From Cyanidioschyzon merolae (lineage: Eukaryota), in the NCBI GenBank assembly GCA_000091205.1, contig AP006501.2: 64,000 nt of DNA. The stretch is one strand, 5' to 3'. The notes below the pieces were generated by a model, which made no database searches, had not been told where the DNA came from, and saw nothing but the letters and a program-made list of their open reading frames with translations. Position 1 is the first letter of the stretch; every line of letters starts with the position of its first letter. Shown here one piece after another: positions 1,850-62,859 of this stretch. Made by a program: the position numbers and the translations under genes.

Positions 1850-3607
1850 ATGTGGGTTGTACCTGGCAGTTTTAGGGCACGACGATGCGACGGTTTTGGT
1901 GTAGAATGGACCTGGTCTGTTGATCGGGCCTGTGCAACAGTTCCGTGCTCGAGCCTGAGGCGACCGCGACCACGACAGGGCGCTACGGTGCGGCGAGAGC
2001 GAAACTGGAGTCAAAAGCCGTGTGGCGTCCCGGGCAACACAGTGGTGAGAGTCTCTTGCCATATAGGGCAAAGTTCGAGTAATGACGAGGGTGGCACTGG
2101 AGAGCCTCTGGTGCACAGCAGTGGCGAACAGGCGTGGCAGCGTCGTGCGCTCTCCAGCACCGGTACAAAGGACGCGGAGCTCGACGCTAATGAGCTGGAT
2201 GACGGCCTCTGGGGTATTGTTTCTCAGCTGCCAGTCAAGCGCATTCTCATCTGGGCTGCGTTCTGCTGGCTCGTGTACCTTTGTCGCCCGTTCATGGGTG
2301 TGTTATTCGGTACGTTCGTCGTCTCGTACGTCGGGGTCTCTTTTTGCCAATGGGGCACACGTTTTCTCCAGCGGTTCGGTATCCAGGCTGCCCGCCGTGT
2401 CATTGTTGGCGTCTACTACAGCGGCATCGCTTTGTTCATCACGACGATGAGCCTGTTGACGATCCCGCGGATCATCAAAGAGGGCCAGTACTTTGTGGGC
2501 ATCATACGGAGTAGCAATCCATACGTATGGATCGCGGATACCATGCGACGAGCCCTGGGTGATGAACTCTCTGCCAAGGTGGAGGCCTTGGTGCTCTCAG
2601 AGGGTTATGCTGAGCTTGCAGACCAAGACACCGGGTCGAGTGCTGGCCAGAGCCCGTCCACAAACGGAGCCGAGACTTCCGAAAGCACAAACGAGGCTTC
2701 TCCGGGGCCGGTGCAAGTCCGCATACCGCATCGCGGCAGCGCAGCAGATGCCAAGGCGGAACGAGCCCCTGGCATCGCTGCCGGTCCGCTAGCGACCATG
2801 AATGCACCGGCAGAGTGGACAGAGGAGCGATCGAGACGACTCGGTTTGATCATCCAAAAGTCACTTTCGCGTTATGTGAATCGTTTCGCCTCCATCGTCA
2901 GCAGGATTTTGAGCAACAGCACAAAAATCATTGTGAAAGTACTGCTTTCCCTGGTGTTCTCATTCCTGATCGTCTGGGATCTGCCATCTGTGGCTGCTGG
3001 CCTGCGTTCTCTTCGCCGCTCCCGACTGCGGGCAGCGTACTTGGAACTGGCGCCGGCCATTGGTGAGTTCTGCGCCCTCCTCGGCCGTTCATTCGAAGCA
3101 CAGTCGATTATTGCGCTTGTGAACACGACGTTGACAACGATTGGCATGGGGATTCTCGGGTTACCGGGTATTGGCTTTCTCTCTCTTCTCTGCTTGATAT
3201 GCTCTTTTATTCCGCTTTTCGGGATTCTGCTCAGCACACTGCCGATGTGTGTCGTCGCGCTGACGGAATACGGGCCAATGCGTGCATTCGCCGTCGTGGT
3301 TATGGTTGCAATTGTTCACCTGATTGAGGCCTATTTCCTGAATCCACAAATCTACAGCGCTCATCTCAAGCTGCCGCCCTTGGTTGTTCTTATGGTTCTG
3401 TACATTGGCGAGCATGCAGGTGGCGTCATGGGTCTTATTCTTGCAGTGCCGCTGACGGTTTATTTGTTGCGATGGATCTATGATATTCCAGAAACGAAGG
3501 AACGTTCTGCGTACGTGAGCTCTATGCGAGCGACCAGCTCGAATGGCAGAGAAGAGCCAAGCGAAGACGTGACGATCACGCGCCAGCAGCAGCAGCAGCA
3601 GCAATAG
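1850..3607 (+). CDS. AI-2E family transporter (PerM/UPF0118-like) membrane protein with an N-terminal extension, a long hydrophilic insert and a C-terminal Q6
   Basis: The ORF track entry 1754..3607 starts with GTG. The first in-frame ATG is at 1850. The C-terminal two thirds match the AI-2E pattern of conserved Gly/Pro-rich transmembrane helices (...GLPGIGFLSLLCLICSFIPLFGILLSTLPMCVVAL...LIEAYFLNPQIYSAHLKLPPLVVLMVLYIGEHAGGVMGLILAVPL...). The roughly 120-aa N-terminal extension is compatible with an organelle transit peptide. Confidence 0.6.
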   Translation: MWVVPGSFRARRCDGFGVEWTWSVDRACATVPCSSLRRPRPRQGATVRRERNWSQKPCGVPGNTVVRVSCHIGQSSSNDEGGTGEPLVHSSGEQAWQRRALSSTGTKDAELDANELDDGLWGIVSQLPVKRILIWAAFCWLVYLCRPFMGVLFGTFVVSYVGVSFCQWGTRFLQRFGIQAARRVIVGVYYSGIALFITTMSLLTIPRIIKEGQYFVGIIRSSNPYVWIADTMRRALGDELSAKVEALVLSEGYAELADQDTGSSAGQSPSTNGAETSESTNEASPGPVQVRIPHRGSAADAKAERAPGIAAGPLATMNAPAEWTEERSRRLGLIIQKSLSRYVNRFASIVSRILSNSTKIIVKVLLSLVFSFLIVWDLPSVAAGLRSLRRSRLRAAYLELAPAIGEFCALLGRSFEAQSIIALVNTTLTTIGMGILGLPGIGFLSLLCLICSFIPLFGILLSTLPMCVVALTEYGPMRAFAVVVMVAIVHLIEAYFLNPQIYSAHLKLPPLVVLMVLYIGEHAGGVMGLILAVPLTVYLLRWIYDIPETKERSAYVSSMRATSSNGREEPSEDVTITRQQQQQQQ

Positions 3608-10505: not shown

Positions 10506-10670
10506 AACGTTTGCACTCACGCGTTGAGCATCGGGAAGTGAAGGCACAGCTGGAGCAGTCGCACTGGAAGAGGTCTCACAGTGCGGAGAGACGACGCGGG
10601 AACTGCCTCATACACGCTGAACACACAGGCGGTGGCGATTTGAATATGCGTGTTGACGCGCGTCGACAGC

Positions 10671-10937
10671 GGAGCGTTCATGCGTGCAGGTCGGCAGCAG
10701 CGCGTACTGCGTCCTGCTCGGGGTATGCTGTATTCAGCGTGTGTGAAACGACTGGATGCACCGGGCTCGTGCTTCGTAGTGAACGCTGGAGCTGGACTGG
10801 ACTACCGCGGAGCGTTCATGCGTGCAGGTAGGCAGCAGCGCGTACTGCGTCCTGCTCGGGGTATGCTGTATTCAGCGTGTGTGAAACGACTGGATGCACC
10901 GGGCTCGTGTTTCGTAGTGAACGCTGGAGCTGGACGG
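10671..10937. repeat. Tandem duplication, 2 x about 138 bp with a truncated second unit, in the RAD52/translin divergent intergenic region
   Basis: The unit starts ggagcgttcatgcgtgcagg(t/c)(c/a)ggcagcagcgcgtactgcgtcctgctcggggtatgctgtattcagcgtgtgtgaaacgactggatgcaccgggctcgtg... and is repeated almost exactly at 10671 and 10809. It yields the internally repeated ORF 10650..11012. Confidence 0.8.
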
Positions 10938-34331: not shown

Positions 34332-35456
34332 TCATGGATGAATAGTATCTTTGAATTCAAAGAACGAGTCATGCATGCGAATGAAAGAGTACTCCTCGCA
34401 TGACCCACAACACCCGTATAAATTAGGTTCTTTGTGAAAGATAGCGAACCCGGCGTGCATAAAACCTTGGAAAAACTCATCCACTTCTGGGATAGAGGCG
34501 ATACCCGCGTGCACTTCGATAAGGACTTGATTCACGTGCCGCAGCGCGTGCCAGGTTCTCAAGGCATATTGCTCTTCAGAGCTGAGTTCACGTTGGCTCC
34601 GTCCTTGGCGAAGGAGCTTGTCGGCTGCCCGGAACGCTCCCAAGAAAGAGGTGAACTCACCACCCTCGATATCGATCTTGAGCACCTCGACGACGTTTGG
34701 CAGCTCCAGGTGACCCAATCCAGACATGATCTCCGCCAGCGAATTGTTGCTCTCAGCCGGGCCAAGCGGCCGGCGAAAAAAACGAACGCGTTCCAGAAAG
34801 CTCTCGGAGTGCATCGCAGATGGTGGCGATGATGTTGGGTCAAAGACGAAAAAATCGCAGTCCGGCAAGCGTTCATGAAGCTTCGTTTCGAAACTGAAAT
34901 CGTTGTTGCTACCAAAACTGTACACAATGCAGCGATACGGGAGCCTGAGCTGCTCACGAAACAGCCGTCCCCGGTTCAGGATAGCAGGTGGGTCGCACAC
35001 CCATTTGCCACCGTCTCCGTTGTTACCGATCCGTTCCTCTAAGGCACAGCCGATATCCGGTTCCCAGTTATTGTAGAAAAAAACCGACGGGTTCGGTTCG
35101 AGGGTAACGGTCTGGCGCTTTCGCTGACGTCGTAACCGAATCCTCCGTTGGGCCCAGAGCGCGTCCGACTCGCACCAGAAGCCGAGCGACTCTTTCAGTG
35201 CTCGCGTGTCCTTCGAAGTCACTGGTAGGGTCCGGTCCCAAATCTCCGTCAGGGTTTTCGCGTTGCGCAAAGAGCTCCCACGACGAAGAGCCCTCGACAC
35301 GGAGCGAACGCAGCTGTCATCCACGGCGGGAAGATCCGCGCGCTGGACACCACTAGAGCGTCCGTTGAGAACACTAGTAGCGCGGTATATTACGATAAGA
35401 GCATAAATAAGAAAAGTCAAAGCCCCTGAAGCGATGCACGGTTTTCGCCACGTCAT
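34332..35456 (-). CDS. FkbM-family (Methyltransf_21-like) methyltransferase domain protein with an N-terminal hydrophobic anchor
   Basis: Shows ...CIVYSFGSNNDFSFETKLHERLPDCDFFVFDP...LKIDIEGGEFTSFL.... The first 80 codons of the track ORF 34332..35696 are a frame-shifted read of the element copy-1 3' tail (GRPLKVELYEKK echoes [12 protein letters not shown] of copy 2). I therefore place the start at the first ATG outside the element, 35456 (MTWRKPCIASGALTFLIYALIVIY). Confidence 0.5.
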   Translation of the reverse strand: MTWRKPCIASGALTFLIYALIVIYRATSVLNGRSSGVQRADLPAVDDSCVRSVSRALRRGSSLRNAKTLTEIWDRTLPVTSKDTRALKESLGFWCESDALWAQRRIRLRRQRKRQTVTLEPNPSVFFYNNWEPDIGCALEERIGNNGDGGKWVCDPPAILNRGRLFREQLRLPYRCIVYSFGSNNDFSFETKLHERLPDCDFFVFDPTSSPPSAMHSESFLERVRFFRRPLGPAESNNSLAEIMSGLGHLELPNVVEVLKIDIEGGEFTSFLGAFRAADKLLRQGRSQRELSSEEQYALRTWHALRHVNQVLIEVHAGIASIPEVDEFFQGFMHAGFAIFHKEPNLYGCCGSCEEYSFIRMHDSFFEFKDTIHP

Positions 35457-35489
35457 GCCGGCCACTGAAAACAAACGTCTTTCAAAAGA

Positions 35490-38400
35490 AAAACGCTGCC
35501 GCCAACGGTGTACAGTAGTTACGGGAAACGCGCCGTAAGCAAATCGTCTCCAGCTGAGGTGCAGACGCATCCCCGTCTTTTTCGACCGTCCACCTACTAC
35601 GTCTTTCATTTTCTTCTCATATAATTCCACTTTGAGAGGTCGCCCCACAGGTTCTCTCGTGTCGAATCTGGAGGTCTTTTCTCCAGCACCGCACATCTCC
35701 TGATATTGATAGCGACATTAAAGTCTCGGTTCACAAACTCCATGCGTTTCTTGCCATCTTTGGTTGTGCTTACTAATGCAAGTAGCCCACGAACTTTCGC
35801 CCTCCTTTCCATTTGCTCCTCCGTCAGCGGTCCGTACTTTGCTATTTCGTCAGGGCTCCTCTGGCACTTTTCCATCTCGATCCTTTGAAGTGTACAACAC
35901 AGTTCATGGTGTGTATACGATGTTCGGAACTCATCTACAGGTATTGTAACTAACCTGTCTGCACACCCCTTGTACGTTCTTGTCGTTGGAGCTCGTGTAC
36001 ACTCTTTTTCAGACGCCTAGCGCCCTGCTCCGTATGCTACTACCAGCCTTTGACTTTCATCCTCTTTGAAGGCACTCAGCTGACTGAAAAAGTTCGCGAA
36101 CGCACACTGCTTGCCACCGTATAGATTCATACGCAATCGAGGCCACCGGGGCTTTGTATACTCTTTCCACAGTGCCTCCTAATGAGCAATACGAACTTTC
36201 ATGAACTCCCGAAAAGCTTGAAAATCTGCTCCGCGGCTCGTCACCTCGCTCAAAGCTTCCAGGTGCTCTTTCATTCCTGCATTGCATGTCTCGTTTTTCT
36301 TCCTCGTATTCATCACACCGGATTCTCGATAGTATCTCGCTCTCGGGAACCTCAAAAGACGCATGTCTTTCTGAATGAAGTTGCCGTCTGGACCATATTC
36401 CGCACGCCTGGGTACAGCGATGGCTGTGACATTCGTATTCCCAGGGTCCGCGCCAACGACAAAGTCGTTATACTTCCTTTTCTGTGTGGCACAATCCGCC
36501 TCCTTCTCATCTTCATACCTCGTCACGTCAACGACAACGTCGTCATCCTCTACCTCTTGCGTAGCAGGATCCGCGTCTTTGTTTTCCTCATCCTTCGTGA
36601 CGGGCGCAGCCGAGGACGGAACTGGCCGAGCTGCCTTCAACCGCCGATAGTCTACACACTAGGCTACTCCATCGGTTTCGATCATCCCCGTGAATACCTT
36701 TTGCTTGCTCGTTTTGAGACGTTTGAAATCGAAGATGTTCTTCCAGTACGTCTCCCTGGTTTCACGGGTGAACTCTCTTTTCCTAAAGTTGAACTCCGGA
36801 CTGATTTCCCTCATGATGCCGTAAAGGACGCCGGAGTCGATAGTCACATAATGTGACTTGATGTTGCACAACGGAACGACGTTGAAGCGCTTCCCCATTA
36901 GGAAAGCCTTCTGTCTCTCCCACTCTTCATTCTTGTCCTCACTCGGCTTCATCTCCGCCTTGCGTTCGAGTTCACGGTCCAGAAACACGAAATAGCGCAG
37001 GATGAGGCGATAATGTCTTTCCTTATCTTTTTTCAACTCTGATACCTTTGCTGCTTGATTCGCCAGCCCCAGTACCGCACGGTGCTCTTGTATAGGCGCA
37101 CGGATTACAGAAGCTTCATTCGTGCTCCTGTGTGACGTCTTCTCATCAACGAATTCGATCTCATCTTCATGCTTGCGATCGTTCGTGATGCCATCGATAA
37201 TCGCCCATATTCCTTTGCGAGAGATGCCCGGATAGAGTGCAAACACCGCGCGTATGATGAAACGTTGGAGCTTCATGGTCATATGGTTCCTCAAGTTCGT
37301 GACGTACGTTTTCATCGCCCCGTAGGTGTAAACACTCGAGTCACCCCTGTATCGAGCACCGCCGAAGCGGGATTCGGTGTGGTTTTCGTGGAGGGCATGC
37401 ACTAGCTCATTTTGCTTCCGCGTTTCCGCTGTACCAAGCATCAGATGGCGAATAAAAGTCTTGTCGAATAATTCTTTCCGAACTTCGACTGTTTAGATGT
37501 CCGTCACGTCGCGATACATCCTCTTCACCAAATGCATGAGTCCTGAAGAGGCCTTTACAATACTCAAGGAGTACGACTCGTCATGGGTTCTGATAGCCTC
37601 CCGCACTTTTTCCCTGTACGGATCCTTGATATGTCCAAGAATACAGACTTTCACTACTGTCTCGTCGTACTGTCGTCTTTCTTGCAGCCATTGGCGTCGG
37701 GCTTCCATCTTTTGCTTCTTGGCCCTCTCCAGTTCCTGTGGACTCGGCACTGTTTTTCGGTTTTTTTTCTGGAAACCGGCGACACACTGGGCCTCCGGCA
37801 TCCTCCACTTCCACTTACGTACATTTCCTTTTTATTTTTTTGAAAAAGGAACCCCCTTTGACTGCTTCTTCTATGAACCGCGAACAATGACTTGAATACA
37901 CTCTCTTGAGAGTTGAAACACAACGGAATCGAAAAAATATACTTTGCTACGGCTTCAGAGCGAATACTACTCGTACATTAGAGCAGAATGCTAACGATCA
38001 GGATCGCGTTTCACTTCAACGGCGAGAAGCACGTCATGTATCATGCCCGCCAGATATGGAGATACGCGCATCGACCATGCTACACAAAAAAGGAAGAGAA
38101 ACTAGCAGTTCAATTGCAACGAGATAACGATTTCTTCTCCCTCTATGATACATATTAAAAGGGAGGCAAGATTTCCATGTAGTCGAAACTTTACTTTCCG
38201 GGCGGAAGGCCCTGCGAGCCGGACGAGTCTGCTAGACCAGTCCTTCATGATCTTCCCAGTGCTCAGTGCTGTGGTGATATTCGAGCAACTCGACCGAAAC
38301 GCAGTTTATTCTCGGGCCGGGGACGGGTATGCTGCGTCTGGGCATCGCGCTGGTCGCAGTGGACTCCTACAAAGTCGTTTCGCGCCACACTACACTGTAC

Positions 38401-38575
38401 CTCTGTCTGCGCAGAGTGCATGCTCCCAGGATGATATTGAATCCCGACCACGTTTCAGGTGAAGCTTTCCTCGATCCGAATCCCTCAGTGGTATGGCAAA
38501 GCCGCTCTGCCTCTATGATGCATCGGCATCAGCCGTATAAGCGCTTTTGCTGGAGGTCAAAGCGGGCACTCGGCG
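35490..38575 (-). mobile_element. TnpB/Fanzor-like RuvC-nuclease element, copy 1 (more decayed), inserted between the divergently transcribed FkbM-like and O-methyltransferase genes
   Basis: An about 3.08-kb block collinear with 58620..61636. The 5' 1.7 kb is about 99% identical between copies and the 3' 1.2 kb about 80-85%. Similarity stops at ...gggcactcggcgc (38575) and fades out near 35490. Confidence 0.6.
35606..37801 (-). pseudogene. Disrupted Fanzor/TnpB-like ORF of copy 1
   Basis: ORF0 37493..37801 (basic N-terminus, KKNRK / RAKKQK). In-frame TAA. ORF A 36659..37441, ending at a TAG where copy 2 has CTG. Fragment 36179..36640 carries RuvC-I ([11 protein letters not shown]). A gap at 35875..36179 lacks an ORF. 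Fragment 35606..35875 carries RuvC-III (NRDFNVAINI). Confidence 0.6.
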
Positions 38576-38794
38576 CACTTTAGTACTCACAAAACGATCC
38601 GTATATCCGAGAGGAAGTAAGCGTCATGGAACTTGAGGATAGGGTGCATCATGATGGACACTTTTTCGATTATTAATCCACATCCCGCAATTTGCGATCC
38701 AAGTACAATCTGAGCGTTTTGTCAAACCGAAAAGAAATCACCATGGCTGCAGACGCCCCCGGCGTGCTCACGAGTTGTTCAGCTCAGCGCCTCT

Positions 38795-56792: not shown

Positions 56793-57659
56793 TGGATATG
56801 AGTATAATGGCCAACTCGAGTGGCGAGCTGTGCATCCATGTGGCGGTGAACGAGTCCCGAAACGGTCGCTTGCTGAATACAGTCTACCTGTGGTCGACTT
56901 GTGCGCTGTTTCGGGCGCTTCGCAGAGTAGTCTCTGCTTATGCGTGCTCTGTCGGTCCGCCAATGCGGCTCGCGTCGAAGAGGGTATACAGCTGCTGAAA
57001 ATGTTCACCACGGTCGGTGTTCAGAAGTCTCTGCTTGTGCGTGCTCTGTCGGTCCGCCAATGCGGCTCGCGTCGAAGAGGGTGTACAGCTATTGGAAATG
57101 CTCGCCTCGGTCGGTGTTCAAAGCATCTGCGAGGAGGCCCTGCTGCCGTCCCAAGCGCAACAAATGCCCCAGTTCCGATCGTAGGAGCCATCCCGTCGCA
57201 GGTGCGCTGGTTTCACGCTCATTGACTGTTTTGACGGCGACGCGCTGGCGTGCAGCACTTGGTGACCCATGGGACGCTTCCAGACATCCGCGGTTCCGTT
57301 CAGCGCTTGCCTTTACGCCGTCCTGGTTCAACGGGAACGTCAGTCATCTCGAAACGGCAGCGTGTACCTACTCTGGTTTTAGGCTTCACGAGCGTGGATG
57401 AGCGGCTCACTAGTCGCTGCCTTGTCCCTAATGCGTCAGCATTCCACTTCCACGTGTCGAGCGTAGCACGTTAGGGTCTCCCTATCGCTAACTCGAAGCT
57501 GGTCCCCGGAAGCAGCTCTCTCCAACAGAGCCGCATCCCAGCTGAGGAATCAGCGCAACAGTTACAGCGACCAGGCGTTCACAACTCACTGTGCTCTGGG
57601 GGACTGCAGAACACGCAAGTCCATGGAATACTCTGGTTAATGGCGTGCAATCAAGATCA

Positions 57660-58538
57660 TCAACTAGCTGTGGCCGATAATCGTTTGTTCTGAACCTGGC
57701 GGCGACGCTGGTCAAAGTCCGTGAACCCCACCATTTCTGAGAGCGCTGCGGTTGGCGCTTCAGCCAGGTGCCCTCGATTACCCTCCAGTTCCAATCGTTG
57801 TAAAGCACCGAGTTCGATAAAGAGATCGACGGGCAGCGATTCTAAACGATTATGGTCCAAACACAGCTGCCGCAAGTTTTGCAAACCCCGCAACGACTCG
57901 ATATTTAAGGTTTGCAATTCATTTCGGGATAGGATCAACACTTCAAGCGCTGGAAAGGATTTGCTCAGCCATTTCGGGAGAGAGCTGATGTGATTTCCCG
58001 CGAGGTTGAGATACCGCAAGCAGGGAAAAACGATGTTCCTGCATGCATCAGGGACGCACGGCAGACGATTATCGCTTAACGATAGCCACTGCAGTGGCGA
58101 CGTCGGCTTGACACCGGACACCGGGTCTGGCTCGTGCTGCGCTTGTACACTCAAGTTGGCGCGGTGTTCGGTTGTGTGCAGGTCACCAATAGCATTTCGC
58201 GCCAGGTTAAGCGACCAAAGACGCGGCAGGGCGTATAGCAGTGCAGCTGGTACCGTGACTAGCTCGTTTTCGGACAGATCCAGTCGCTCCAGGCTCCGCA
58301 AGTGTTCCAGAAGCGAAGATGGAAACGTTTTCACCCCGCCATAGCGAGCGTAGAGCACTCGAACCCGCTCGCCGTGCTTCAACAGCTGAGGCACAGCGCG
58401 GTCCCAGTGGATGCTTTGAACCGATGCCACACCAGTTTGCAACCAGCGCTGTGCGCTTTCATCTTCGTTTCTGGAGTGCAGCGGATGTGAAGCTTCCCTA
58501 CTGCGTGCTCCAAAGCAGTCTGCGAGTACGTTCCCCAT
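57660..58538 (-). CDS. Leucine-rich repeat protein
   Basis: Has at least 8 LxxLxLxxNxL repeats (LERLDLSENELVTVP, LWSLNLARNAIGDL, LQWLSLSDNRLPCVP, LRYLNLAGNHISSLP, LEVLILSRNELQTL, LRQLCLDHNRLESLP...). The track start at 58559 is GTG and the first ATG is at 58538. Confidence 0.55.
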   Translation of the reverse strand: MGNVLADCFGARSREASHPLHSRNEDESAQRWLQTGVASVQSIHWDRAVPQLLKHGERVRVLYARYGGVKTFPSSLLEHLRSLERLDLSENELVTVPAALLYALPRLWSLNLARNAIGDLHTTEHRANLSVQAQHEPDPVSGVKPTSPLQWLSLSDNRLPCVPDACRNIVFPCLRYLNLAGNHISSLPKWLSKSFPALEVLILSRNELQTLNIESLRGLQNLRQLCLDHNRLESLPVDLFIELGALQRLELEGNRGHLAEAPTAALSEMVGFTDFDQRRRQVQNKRLSATAS

Positions 58539-58619
58539 GAGCGGTAGCTGCAGCAGCACTTGAAGCCATGAGCCCTTTTCGACCTTTCGTTGGTCTGTTC
58601 GGTAGTGGCAGCCGCCAAA

Positions 58620-58740
58620 CTACGCTCTGATGTCGGGCGTCGCCACCAGCGGTGTAGAATAGTGGCGAGAAAGTCGACCCAGAAAAATCGTTTCTAGCTG
58701 TCGTGCAGACGCCTCCCCGTCCTTCTCGACCGGCCACGTA
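58620..58740 (-). ncRNA. Candidate omega-RNA (guide RNA scaffold) region immediately 3' of the RuvC ORF stop codon
   Basis: The non-coding sequence 3' of the stop is conserved between copies for about 110-120 bp (for example gtgcagacgc.tccccgtc, aaatcgt.tc.agctg). It ends where the unrelated host flanks begin. This is by analogy with TnpB/Fanzor loci only. Confidence 0.25.
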
Positions 58741-59856
58741 CTACTGGTTCCATTTTTTTTCATATAGTTCCGCTTTGAGAGGTTGTCCAAGAAAAAGCTC
58801 TCGTGTCCACTCTGAAGGTCTTCTTTCCATCACCGCACATGTCCTTATATTGATAGCGGCATTAAAATCTCGGTTCACAAACTCCATACGTTTCTTGCCA
58901 TTGACTGTACTTAATAATGCGAGTAGTCCTCGAACATTCGCCCACCTTTCCATATGCTCCTCCGTCAGCGGTCCGTACTTTGCTATTTCGTCAGGGCTCC
59001 TCTGGCACTTTTCCATCTCGATCCTTTGAAGTGTACAACACAGTACATGGTGTGTATACGATGTTCGGAACTCATCTACAGGTACTATGACAAAACGTCG
59101 TGCGTACTCCTTATACGTTCTCGTCGTTGGAGCTGGTGTACACCCTTTTTGGGTCTTCGAGCGCGCTGCTCCGTACGCCACTACGAGCCTCTGACATTGA
59201 TCCTCTTTGAGGGCACTCAACCCATTGAAAAAATTCGCGAACGCCCGTTGCCTCCCACAATATAGATTCATACACAGACGAGCCCACCGAGGCTTTGTAT
59301 ATTCATTCCGCAGCGCATCCCAATGAGCAACACGAACATTCATGAATTTCAGAAAAGCTGTAAAGTCCGCTCCGCGGCTCGTCACCTCGCTCAAAGCTTC
59401 TACGTGATCCTTCATTCCTGCATTCCATGTCTCAATTTTCTTCGTTGCATTCATGATTCCCGATTCTCGATAGAATCTTGCTCTCGAGAACCTCAAAAGT
59501 CGCATGTCTTTCTGAAGCAAGTTACCGTCCTTACCATCTTCGGCACGCTTGGGTACAGCGATGGTTATGATATTTGTGTTTCCGGGGTCCGCGCCAACGA
59601 CAAAGTCTATCTCATGCACTTTCAGTGCCGCAGGATCCGCGTCTCTGTTTTCCTCATGCTTCGTCATGGGCGAAGCCGAAGGCACGATAGGAAGAAACGC
59701 CTCCAAGCGCTTGCAGTCTACACACAGGGCTACTCCATCGGTTTCGATCATCCCCGTGAATACCTTTTGCCTGCTAACTTTTGAGACGTCTGAAATCGAA
59801 GAGACTCTTCCAGTACGTGTCAGGGGCTTCGCCGGTGAACTCTGTCCGCCTTCCAT
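58741..59856 (-). CDS. Element ORF B: TnpB/Fanzor-type RuvC nuclease domain with a degenerate zinc-finger insert
   Basis: Ruv[20 protein letters not shown]. Ruv[29 protein letters not shown]/Zn-finger remnant H..CC....C. Ruv[23 protein letters not shown]. The order and spacing are as in TnpB/Fanzor/Cas12. It continues the ORF A reading frame after the +1 shift (shared ...[13 protein letters not shown]). Confidence 0.65.
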
Positions 59857-60508
59857 CGAACTCCGGACAGATCCCCTTCATGATGCCATGAAGGACGCCG
59901 GAGTCGATAGTCACATAATGTGACTTGATGTTGCACAACGGAACGACGTTGAAGCGCTTCACCGCTAGGAAAGCCTTCTGTCTTTCCCACTCTTCACTCT
60001 TGTCCTCACTCGGCTTCATCTCCGCCTTGCGTTCGAGTTCACGGTCCAGAAACACGAAATAGCGCAGGATGAGGCGATAATGTCTTTCCTTATCTTTTTT
60101 CAACTCTGATACCTTTGCTGCTTGATTCGCCAGCCCCAGTACCGCACGGTGCTCTTGTATAGGCGCACGGATTACAGAAGCTTCATTCGTGCTCCTGTGT
60201 GACTTCTTCTCATCAACGAATTCGACCTCATCTTCATGCTTGCGATCGTTCGTGATGCCATCGATAATCGCCCATATTCCTTTGCGAGAGATGCCCGGAT
60301 AGAGTGCAAACACCGCGCGTATGATGAAACGTTGGAGCTTCATGGTCATATGGTTCCTCAAGTTCGTGACGTACGTTTTCATCGCCCCGTAGGTGTAAAC
60401 ACTCGAGTCACCCCTGTATCGAGCACCGCCGAAGCGGGATTCGGTGTGATTTTCGTGGAGGGCGTGCACTAGCTCATCTTGCTTCCGCGTTTCCGCTGTA
60501 CCAAGCAT
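59774..60508 (-). CDS. Element ORF A: N-terminal (non-RuvC) half of the Fanzor/TnpB-like protein
   Basis: ATG confirmed at 60506..60508. It is 244 aa and about 95% identical to copy-1 ORF A (36659..37441). It ends at a stop created by a +1 insertion relative to copy 1 (aaaagttagcaggcaaaagg versus aaaacgagcaagcaaaagg). Confidence 0.55.
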
Positions 60509-60559
60509 CAGATGGCGAATAAAAGTCTTGTCGAATAATTCTTTCCGAACTTCGACTGT

Positions 60560-60883
60560 TTAGATGTCCGTCACGTCGCGATACATCCTCTTCACCAAAT
60601 GCATGAGTCCTGAAGAGGCCTTTACAATACTCAAGGAGTACGACTCGTCATGGGTTCTGATAGCCTCCCGCACTTTTTCCCTGTACGGATCCTTGATATG
60701 TCCAAGAATACAGACTTTCACTTCTGTCTCGTCGTACTGTCGTCTTTCTTGCAGCCATTGGCGTCGGGCTTCCATCTTTTGCTTCTTGGCCCTCTCCAGT
60801 TCCTGTGGACTCGGCACTGTTTTTCGGTTTTTTTTTTCTGGAAACCGGCGACACACTGGGCCTCCGGCATCCTCCACTTCCAC
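60560..60883 (-). CDS. Element ORF0: basic (NLS-like) N-terminal segment of the Fanzor-like protein, separated from ORF A by an in-frame TAA present in both copies
   Basis: Reads ...KKNRKTVPSPQELERAKKQKMEARRQWLQERRQYDETEVKVCILGHIKDPYREKVREAIRTHDESYSLSIVKASSGLMHLVKRMYRDVTDI. Copy 2 has an A10 run where copy 1 has A8, which shifts the N-terminal frame. The in-frame start is GTG. Confidence 0.45.
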   Translation of the reverse strand: MEVEDAGGPVCRRFPEKKNRKTVPSPQELERAKKQKMEARRQWLQERRQYDETEVKVCILGHIKDPYREKVREAIRTHDESYSLSIVKASSGLMHLVKRMYRDVTDI

Positions 60884-61710
60884 TTACGTACATTTCCTTT
60901 TTATTTTTTGAAAAAGGAACCCCCTTTGACTGCTTCTTCTATGAACCGCGAACAATGACTTGAATACACTCTCTTGAGAGTTGAAACACAACGGAATCGA
61001 AAAAATATACTTTGCTACGGCTTCAGAGCGAATACTACTCGTACATTAGAGCAGAATGCTAACGATCAGGATCGCGTTTCACTTCAACGGCGAGAAGCAC
61101 GTCATGTATCATGCCCGCCAGATATGGAGGTACGCGCATCGACCATGCTACACAAAAAAGGAAGAGGAACTAGCAGTTCAATTGCAACGAGATAACGATT
61201 TCTTCTCCCTCTATGATACATATTAAAAGGGAGGCAAGATTTCCATGTAGTCGAAACTTTACTTTCCGGGCGGAAGGCCCTGCGAGCCGGACGAGTCTGC
61301 TAGACCAGTCCTTCATGATCTTCCCAGTGCTCAGTGCTGTGGTGATATTCGAGCAACTCGACCGAAACGCAGTTTATTCTCGGGCCGGGGACGGGTATGC
61401 TGCGTCTGGGCATCGCGCTGGTCGCAGTGGACTCCTACAAAGTCGTTTCGCGCCACACTACACTGTACCTCTGTCTGCGCAGAGTGCATGCTCCCAGGAT
61501 GATATGGAATCCCGACCACGTTTCAGGTGAAGCTTTCCTCGATCCGAATCCCTCAGTGGTATGGCAAAGCCGCTCTGCCTCTATGATGCATCGGCATCAG
61601 CCGTATAAGCGCTTTTGCTGGAGGTCAAAGCGGGCACTCGGCGCCCGATAGAATATACAAAAAGACTAGTACGTCCGAAAGGAGGTACCTTTCATGGAAC
61701 AAAAACGTAG

Positions 61711-62859
<1,149 letters not shown>

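Follow-up and report, generated by a model that had tools for sequence, protein, structure and literature searches.

Evidence for a decayed Fanzor1 element of the CMe-1A type between two genes of Cyanidioschyzon merolae

Two copies of one element in the window

A 64,000-nucleotide stretch of Cyanidioschyzon merolae DNA (contig AP006501.2 of assembly GCA_000091205.1; hereafter the window) contains 2 copies of a repeated element that lie about 23 kb apart. The copy that is the main subject here, copy 2, sits between the genes for XP_005538997.1, a leucine-rich repeat (LRR) protein whose ATG is at 58538 on the minus strand, and XP_005538998.1, a plastid 3-oxoacyl-ACP reductase whose ATG is at 61894 on the plus strand. 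Copy 1 adjoins the start of XP_005538988.1 (ATG 35456, minus strand). Three ORFs of the window are identical to annotated proteins of C. merolae 10D, encoded on a chromosome of 1,282,939 bp. The region is very probably one of 2 decayed copies of the non-autonomous DNA transposon CMe-1A, a Fanzor1 family described from C. merolae by Bao and Jurka (2013, Mobile DNA 4:12, PMC3627910), with a gene that once encoded a Fanzor1 protein. An earlier note made from the sequence alone had placed a Fanzor/TnpB-like element at 58620-61636 and a second copy elsewhere in the window. The location and the second copy (~35472-38740) hold; the ends do not, and comparison across the family puts them at ~58612 and ~61812.

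These ends come from a scan of hot-spring metagenome contigs that returned 235 related stretches, 80 loci of which were retained for anatomy. Homology to copy 2 stops at 61786-61812 on the 5' side in those family members that carry a 5' module (class A), and at 58616-58650 on the 3' side in nearly all loci (at least 70 family copies from the metagenomes). The only long open reading frames (ORFs) in the element are pieces of the Fanzor gene, and none of its ORFs encodes a transposase, a RepHel protein, or TnpA. A search of the window elements for inverted repeats found none, and the element ORFs do not occur among the NCBI-annotated C. merolae proteins. Empty orthologous sites, sought to fix the ends and any target site duplication (TSD), were not found among contigs from related strains, which either hold the same insertions or stop at the repeat. 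Two of these loci, L008 and L009, are orthologues of copy 2 that are 98.4-98.6% identical including the flanks (L009 98.4%), and a third, L033, is an orthologue of copy 1 at 99.6% identity. Because these orthologues carry the insertions, both insertions are older than the divergence of the strains.

Homology, active site and fold of the encoded protein

The RuvC-containing ORF of copy 2 carries, in this order, the GADPG, VDEFRTS, and RuvC-III motifs reported in the earlier note, and a large protein collection holds 43 close relatives of it at 55-83% identity, all from Joint Genome Institute (JGI) metagenomes. A shallow profile built from relatives in this range of identity matched nothing in the PDB. 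Used against the protein collection, the profile of the 43 relatives found 1503 representative clusters (E<=0.001), many with proteins of 600-700 aa. PF26935, which is flagged on many matches, was set aside as a weak match to a domain of unknown function (DUF8286). An alignment of 40 diverse full-length members, 28-40% identical to the C. merolae type, was then the basis of a deeper profile (A3), and this profile matches three Fanzor1 proteins of solved structure among the PDB sequences: Fz1 of Parasitella parasitica (PpFz1; 9cf0, E=8.1e-19), of Spizellomyces punctatus (SpuFz1; 8gkh, E=3.1e-12), and of Guillardia theta (GtFz1; 9cer, E=3.6e-7).

The D of G.DPG and the E of VDEF are invariant in the 40-member alignment, and RD.NAA.NI is invariant or nearly so. 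Conservation was counted over a wider set of 85 relatives at 28-44% identity, with the results given per motif in Table 1; residues that remain invariant or near-invariant over such distances place the motifs far beyond chance. In the printed alignment, the D, E, and D of the family face D777, E935, and D1000 of the 8gkh chain, in which a maltose-binding protein (MBP) tag offsets the numbering by 394, and these are D383, E541, and D606 of SpuFz1. Together with N385, the 3 SpuFz1 residues coordinate two Mg2+ ions (Saito et al. 2023, PMC10432273). Fanzor active sites have Gly or Pro at the canonical position of the RuvC-II Glu and an alternative Glu downstream (Jiang et al. PMC10530073; Yoon et al. 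PMC10711439). The Glu of VDEFRTS had been read as that of RuvC-II; it does align as the catalytic Glu, but the canonical TnpB position holds an invariant Gly, and the Glu is the alternative one of the Fanzor type. Two further signatures given there are DPG and, in the case of Fanzor1, TDG within the WED domain (PMC10530073, PMC10711439).

An AlphaFold2 (AF2) model of the RuvC ORF, made from the 85-sequence alignment, has a predicted local distance difference test (pLDDT) score of 86.1 and a predicted TM-score (pTM) of 0.81. When this model is compared with the PDB by Foldseek, SpuFz1 comes out on top (E=2.8e-10, TMq 0.60), and SpuFz1, PpFz1, and GtFz1 together fill ranks 1-7. Lower ranks are taken by Cas12o (2e-5), Cas12X, ISDra2 TnpB (8h1j, 1.5e-3), and Cas12f (1e-2). 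The model has 2 long helices, 165-186 and 189-214, which lie between RuvC-I and RuvC-II and are probably the REC2 pair. A model made from the shallow alignment was unusable (pLDDT 37.8), and no fold search was made from it. The identification of the protein as Fanzor1 is supported by homology, by the active-site alignment, and by the fold, and the Fanzor/TnpB-like nuclease that the earlier note had proposed is borne out on all 3 grounds. The note had named 2 outcomes that would overturn it, a lack of significant matches and acidic residues out of line with the catalytic positions, and neither occurred.

One gene in three pieces

ORF0 and ORF A lie in one frame with a single TAA between them, and ORF A is offset from the RuvC ORF by the +1 insertion. 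Full-length relatives (600-700 aa) run colinearly through all 3 ORFs, which therefore represent one decayed gene of ~708 codons, and conceptual repair of copy 2 yields a protein of ~708 aa. The extension to about 700 aa through the 2 upstream ORFs, the TAA, and the +1 insertion had all been proposed from the letters of the window, and all are upheld. The Lys/Arg-rich character of ORF0 is seen in basic stretches such as KKNRK... and RAKKQK.

The TAA is a true nonsense mutation. Over 60 alignments, the codon at this position is GAA in 41, AAA in 11, another sense codon in 4, interrupted by a 1-nt gap in 1, and TAA in 3. Those 3 are L008, L009, and L033, each a direct orthologue of a window copy. 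Six annotated host genes contain no in-frame TAA. With the TAA private to the window copies and their orthologues, and with none in frame in the host genes, the possibility that TAA is read as a sense codon was rejected. The +1 frameshift near 59778 is missing in L009, where the 605 codons past the TAA are uninterrupted; this frameshift is therefore recent and specific to strain 10D.

A third defect of copy 2 lies just after the start, where a poly-A run has 10 A in copy 2 (60828-60837) versus 8 A in copy 1 (37759-37766), shifting the frame of copy 2. The length of the run varies between other copies as well (L009; L088 at ~2950-3000), repeatedly displacing the ATG from the frame. It looks like a homopolymer frameshift hotspot, for which assembly error or slippage is possible. 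With the poly-A frameshift, the TAA, and the +1 insertion in copy 2, and the defects listed in Table 1 for copy 1, both window copies are pseudogenes. The earlier proposal of an RNA-guided-nuclease candidate stands as to the family, but the 2 copies are no candidates for an active enzyme. Decay extends to the best-preserved member of the family, P0001 (752 aa, from L088), in which the ATG is out of frame across the poly-A run and a premature TAA lies 14 codons before the usual stop.

Between the WED strand with the TDG motif and RuvC-I, the protein has an acidic repeat of ~25 aa (e.g., ATQEVEDNDFVVDVTKHEDEKEADP) in variable number. Copy 1 (36466-36564) has one unit more than copy 2 (59612/59613), and P0001 and P0014 have several tandem units.

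Table 1. Positions of the element copies, their ORFs, motifs, and non-coding parts in the window
Feature	Position	Strand	Size	Remarks
Copy 2, Fanzor1 element of CMe-1A type, whole extent	~58612..61812	minus	~3.2 kb	Limits are the ends of family homology
Copy 1, element of the same family	~35472..38740	minus		
Non-coding 5' module	61124..61812	minus	~690 bp	Terminus reads TTTTTCTTTTCGATGA...; in class A, not in class B
Ancestral ATG	60868..60870	minus		Out of frame in copy 2
ORF0, N-terminus of the former Fanzor1, rich in Lys/Arg	60560..60883	minus	107 aa	Ends at TAA 60560-60562
ORF A, REC/WED N-terminal part	59774..60508	minus	244 aa	Frame broken by +1 insertion near 59778
RuvC-containing ORF	58741..59856	minus	371 aa	
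WED TDG motif (IETDGVA, residues 39-41)	59734-59742	minus		D40 invariant; T39 and G41 at least 90%
RuvC-I motif GADPG	59581-59595; Asp D90 59587-59589	minus		D invariant in 85 relatives
Canonical RuvC-II position, Gly G229 (VVAYG)	59170-59172	minus		Invariant, 85/85
VDEFRTS, alternative Glu E262	59059-59079; Glu 59071-59073	minus		Invariant, 85/85; 33 residues past G229
RuvC-III motif	58846-58875; Asp D330 58867-58869	minus		83/85; N332 and N336 84/85
Conserved non-coding 3' tail	58612..58740	minus	~130 nt after the stop	Terminal stem-loop 58620-58641, decayed in copy 2
Tract common to both copies	59950..61650 (copy 2); 36880-38580 (copy 1)	minus	~1.7 kb	~99% identical
Copy 1 ATG	37799-37801			In frame; copy 1 reads MPEAQCVAGFQKKNRKTVPSPQELERAKK...
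Copy 1 shared TAA	37493-37495			Three TAG stops and a terminal frameshift elsewhere in copy 1
Copy 1 terminal hairpin	35472-35497			Intact

Gene conversion between the copies

Outside the tract that the 2 copies have in common, their block-wise identity is lower: the outermost 130 nt on the 5' side are 63% identical, the 3' part of the coding region 82-84%, and the tail 70%. A block of ~99% identity set among blocks of 63-84% marks a gene-conversion tract of ~1.7 kb. The private TAA lies within this tract and was spread between the copies by the conversion. Such homogenization of neighboring dead copies can give old pseudogenes a young appearance.

The conserved 3' tail and its terminal hairpin

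The non-coding tail downstream of the stop codon is conserved across the family: aligned together with the last 40 coding nucleotides, it has a mean column identity of 79%. Most copies end in a stem-loop, of which there are at least three sequence versions (CGTTTTTC-TTTT-GAAAGRCG, CGTTCGA-CTT-TCGAACG, and CGTTC-GACTTA-GAACG), often with a stem of 13-15 bp. In L088, the outer stem is altered on both sides and the pairing is retained. A terminal hairpin of at least 8 bp is present in 40 of 47 distinct copies, and one of at least 10 bp in 51%, versus 13% of shuffles.

Where Fanzor1 systems have been characterized, the guide RNA is encoded in the non-coding DNA 3' of the gene, next to the right end, and its scaffold closes with a double-stranded stem in which the transposon end is included (PMC10530073, PMC10711439). 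A conserved tail with a terminal hairpin fits this location, and by analogy the tail is a plausible candidate for an omega-RNA scaffold; it could then define the guide RNA of these elements. Internal helices are weakly supported. The RNAalifold consensus of the tail is weak (-2.9 kcal/mol), and a structure derived by hand has 83.9% of its cells paired versus 83.3% in shuffles. A crude scan for pairs was too noisy, and the mapping of pairs from minimum free energy (MFE) structures was inconsistent. With the consensus weak and the z-scores and covariation given below, the claim of a proven RNA structure was withdrawn, and what is kept is the sequence conservation and the retention of the hairpin.

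Two further observations concern the 3' end. L024 has a wholly different 15-bp terminal hairpin (GCCGGCGAGCACGCGC-TCGT-GCGCGTGCTCGCCGGA) at the usual position, which could be a coincidence of the flank or a structure kept without its sequence. Eight loci (L015, L017, L021, L027, L031, L063, L072, and L081) share an extra GTTTGTTTCCAGGGGT just 3' of the terminal hairpin, before the flanks diverge, either as a subfamily with a longer 3' end or as a preferred target sequence.

The 5' module

At the opposite end of the element, the 5' module contains no conserved ORF and begins with the terminus TTTTTCTTTTCGATGACAAAACGTTTACATTGACCATGGATCC. Class B copies lack it, and their homology to copy 2 begins at ~61092-61123. 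The module is probably the segment that Bao and Jurka report as common to CMe-1A and TE-N2_CMe, and it is interchangeable. Some class B copies carry the reverse complement of the module terminus ~30 nt upstream of the junction, a sign that inversion or exchange of the module or of its terminus may occur. In L012, L018, L034, and other class B copies, it is the first ~40 nt of the module that stand reverse-complemented (GGATCCATGGTC..AAACGTTTTGTCATCGAAAA), ~30-70 nt upstream of the junction equivalent to 61123.

Neighboring genes and unrelated repeats

The borders between the element and its neighboring genes are blurred in mechanical gene calls. An ORF opening at 61711 starts within the 5' terminus of the element and runs through 61711-61893 into XP_005538998.1, whose annotated start is 61894, and an ORF ending at 35696 joins the 3' end of copy 1 to XP_005538988.1 through 35457-35696, where the annotated start is 35456. 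The same over-extension is seen in several gene calls from metagenomes (382 aa, 454 aa).

Downstream of copy 1 lies a methyltransferase-domain gene (34332-35456) with a paralogue on another chromosome, XP_005535371.1, that is at least 90% identical. At a second locus, L013/L014, an element of 87% identity is likewise followed by this gene, whose protein is 97% identical, and the likeness is a segmental duplication covering the 3' part of the element. The gene was rejected as a component of the element, as it recurs at one paralogous locus only. Two tandem direct repeats in the window are unrelated to the element: 56926-57119 (2 x 97 nt, 91% identical) and 10666-10935 (2 x 132 nt, 98% identical). 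The first of them lies between the BRX1 gene and the LRR gene.

Weighing the Fanzor1 reading and its alternatives

Several results count against the reading of these elements as CMe-1A copies with a Fanzor1 gene and a guide-encoding tail. Submitted as single sequences, the RuvC ORF and the repaired 708-aa protein matched only PF07282 in Pfam (the Cas12f1-like TNB domain), on the RuvC-III motif, at E=0.11-0.37 and with a score below the cut-off (13 versus 26 bits). Single-sequence searches of NCBIfam, PHROGs, and, by phmmer, the PDB gave no match. With single-sequence searches nearly blank, it is the profile and the fold that carry the assignment. Among 71 metagenome copies sampled, none has an ORF of at least 650 codons, which leaves current activity of the family unproven. 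For the tail, the mean MFE z-score on the sense strand is -1.1 (-0.4 antisense), covariation is not significant (46 of 500 shuffles reach the observed score), and Rfam gave no match. The assignment of the window elements to CMe-1A is made on species, size, architecture, and protein type. The last of these points is that, in the stretch from the TS motif to the RD, the 85 sequences lack a conserved C4 zinc finger, which is part of the Fanzor/TnpB motif of 2013.

This missing finger bears on the definition of the family. In the region concerned, the 85 sequences have one Cys column at 71% and 2 His columns at 33-41%. The earlier note had taken an H/CC/C pattern as the decayed zinc finger of copy 2; that explanation falls, as the alignment presents the loss as clade-wide and not as decay of copy 2. 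The C4 finger is part of the sequence motif of 2013, and the authors of that motif still classed the C. merolae protein as Fanzor1 (PMC3627910); the Fanzor definitions of 2023 rest on RuvC signatures and phylogeny, and the finger is no criterion in them. We treat its absence as a variant feature within the Fanzor1 family and not as grounds for exclusion. A large Fanzor1 clade would then work, or once have worked, without a C4 zinc finger. At the site of the finger in other Fanzors, the RuvC ORF has a 20-residue insertion (residues 284-303, ~58948-59007), which is found only in Cyanidioschyzon-type sequences, ~11% of the 85-sequence alignment.

Different accounts of the protein have to be set against these data. 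A copy 2 that is still functional, with its TAA read through or spliced out and its frames restored by slippage on the poly-A run so that full-length Fanzor1 is made, could point to the 3 catalytic residues, which are kept in both window copies, to L009, in which only the TAA and the poly-A length stand in the way of an otherwise open 605 codons, and to the variation in poly-A length among copies, which could look like programmed slippage. We consider this very unlikely, since the TAA is private to the 2 copies and their orthologues (the other 57 alignments have 56 sense codons and the 1-nt gap) and does not occur in frame in the 6 host genes, the +1 frameshift at ~59778 is not at a slippery run, copy 1 has its three TAG stops, the terminal hairpin of copy 2 is decayed, and the element ORFs are missing from the annotated C. 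merolae proteins. Scarcely credible is a bacterial TnpB of an IS200/605 or IS607 element, present through recent horizontal transfer or as a contaminant. The superfamily is shared with TnpB, Foldseek also finds TnpB 8h1j and Cas12f, and the weak Pfam match is to a Cas12f1-like domain; the element nevertheless lies between annotated nuclear genes on a 1.28-Mb C. merolae chromosome, with the same insertions in related strains, its protein of ~700 aa has the TDG motif of Fanzor1, and the best profile and fold matches are to eukaryotic Fanzor1 by many orders of magnitude. There is no TnpA, and the NCBIfam models of TnpB give no match. These facts, with the Gly at the canonical Glu position, agree with the earlier view of a eukaryotic element distinct from IS200/605. 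The non-significant single-sequence searches with hidden Markov models (HMMs) and the failed first AF2 model would also be expected if the motifs were a chance resemblance in an unrelated repeat-encoded protein. That account has virtually nothing left to it and was ruled out: the profile matches to solved Fanzor1 proteins have the three motifs in register, the catalytic residues are invariant in 85 divergent relatives, and the second AF2 model is confident, with Fanzor1 proteins as its best fold matches.

A separate alternative concerns the tail alone. The conserved tail and hairpin may be signals for transposition at the DNA level, comparable to the end hairpins of Helitrons (3') and IS200/605 elements, or a signal for the 3' end of the mRNA, and contain no guide scaffold; we regard this as rather unlikely. 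In its favor, the hairpin marks the extreme end of the element and persists in several sequence versions, the 5' terminus is similar in sequence to the 3' hairpin and is carried inverted by class B copies, the Fanzor1 genes of Chlamydomonas ride in Helitron2 elements with terminal hairpins, and covariation gives no significant support for internal RNA helices. Against a purely DNA-level role, the element has no RepHel or other transposase gene, and complementarity of a 5' asymmetric terminal inverted repeat (ATIR) to the sequence just upstream of the 3' hairpin, as in Helitron2, is not evident when judged by eye. The sense strand of the tail also folds more stably than the antisense strand (-42.8 versus -33.9 kcal/mol), with modest z-scores. 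In characterized Fanzor1, moreover, the guide scaffold includes the transposon end, so the 2 roles are compatible. Classification of the carrier as a Helitron2 was rejected, since the 3' hairpin is present but there is no RepHel and no ATIR was seen, the latter being a weak negative from inspection by eye.

A possible mechanism and its implications

On the Fanzor1 reading, the way in which an intact member would work can be sketched from characterized systems. The eukaryotic Fanzor1 proteins descend from the TnpB of bacteria. When intact, the protein would bind an omega-RNA, a guide transcribed from the 3' end of the element that encodes it, and the 3'-terminal part of this guide, reading into the flanking DNA, would find a matching target beside a short adjacent motif. 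The DNA would then be cut at a single RuvC site, to which DPG and NRD each contribute their Asp and DEF its relocated Glu. The basic N-terminus may serve nuclear import, and the element, which encodes no transposase, would presumably be mobilized in trans by another enzyme.

With the biochemical function of Fanzor known since 2023 and both window copies dead, the finding itself matters little. It does illustrate that reading a sequence by itself can recognize a highly diverged Fanzor from three short motifs, and that the reference annotation of C. merolae leaves CMe-1A-type elements unannotated. If intact members exist, they would provide an enzyme of possible use in genome editing from an alga living at ~45 degrees C and very low pH. 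A more ambitious idea, which we hold to be improbable, is that the CMe-1 lineage is a branch of Fanzor1 in its own right, without the zinc finger and within a clade of ~1500 clusters at 50% identity, and that some strains or copies could still yield an active nuclease adapted to heat and acid, with a guide scaffold ending in the conserved hairpin. Were this true, a reconstructed consensus could be an unexplored, heat-tolerant, compact genome editor.

Comparison with known systems

SpuFz1 (8gkh) is the best structural match to the C. merolae protein. The DPG Asp, the alternative Glu, and the NRD Asp align, the TDG motif of the WED domain is present in both, and SpuFz1 likewise belongs to a single-ORF element, of 2-3 kb. 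Sequence identity is only ~20%, however, and SpuFz1 possesses a zinc finger (CxxC...CxxC) and inverted repeats of 30 nt, whereas the C. merolae family has neither and has instead the 20-residue insertion in place of the finger and the variable acidic repeat before RuvC-I. SpuFz1 is also active, unlike the window copies. PpFz1 (9cf0; PMC11423790) is the best profile match, extending from the REC/WED part through RuvC-I and including the C-terminal RuvC-II and RuvC-III motifs, but it is larger, has a canonical zinc finger, and has a fungal host.

ISDra2 TnpB and Cas12f (8h1j, 8j12) share the RuvC fold and the mechanism of an RNA-guided nuclease with a single RuvC site. They differ in being bacterial proteins of ~400 aa with the canonical RuvC-II Glu, the partner TnpA, and a C4 finger, and their fold matches to the window ORF are much weaker (E=1.5e-3 and 1e-2).

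The closest comparison is with CMe-1A itself, in which form the family has been in the literature since 2013; the earlier note had been unable to say whether it was catalogued. Bao and Jurka report it as one Fanzor1 family of ~150 copies in C. merolae, each ~80% identical to a consensus of ~3 kb, without terminal inverted repeats (TIRs) and with TSDs that could not be determined; some copies are still intact, and the 5' 635 bp are 95% identical to TE-N2_CMe (PMC3627910). The supplementary tables consulted from the 2023 Nature survey, which was based on proteins, do not mention C. merolae, probably because the reference annotation omits these ORFs. The window elements share with CMe-1A the species, the size of ~3 kb, the single Fanzor1 gene, the lack of TIRs and of evident TSDs, the many diverged copies, and a separate non-coding 5' module of ~0.64-0.69 kb. 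They differ in nothing essential, the window simply holding 2 decayed members. To the published description of CMe-1A, the present comparison adds the missing C4 finger, a class of copies without the 5' module, the boundaries of the element, the conserved 3' tail with its terminal hairpin, and gene conversion between neighboring copies.

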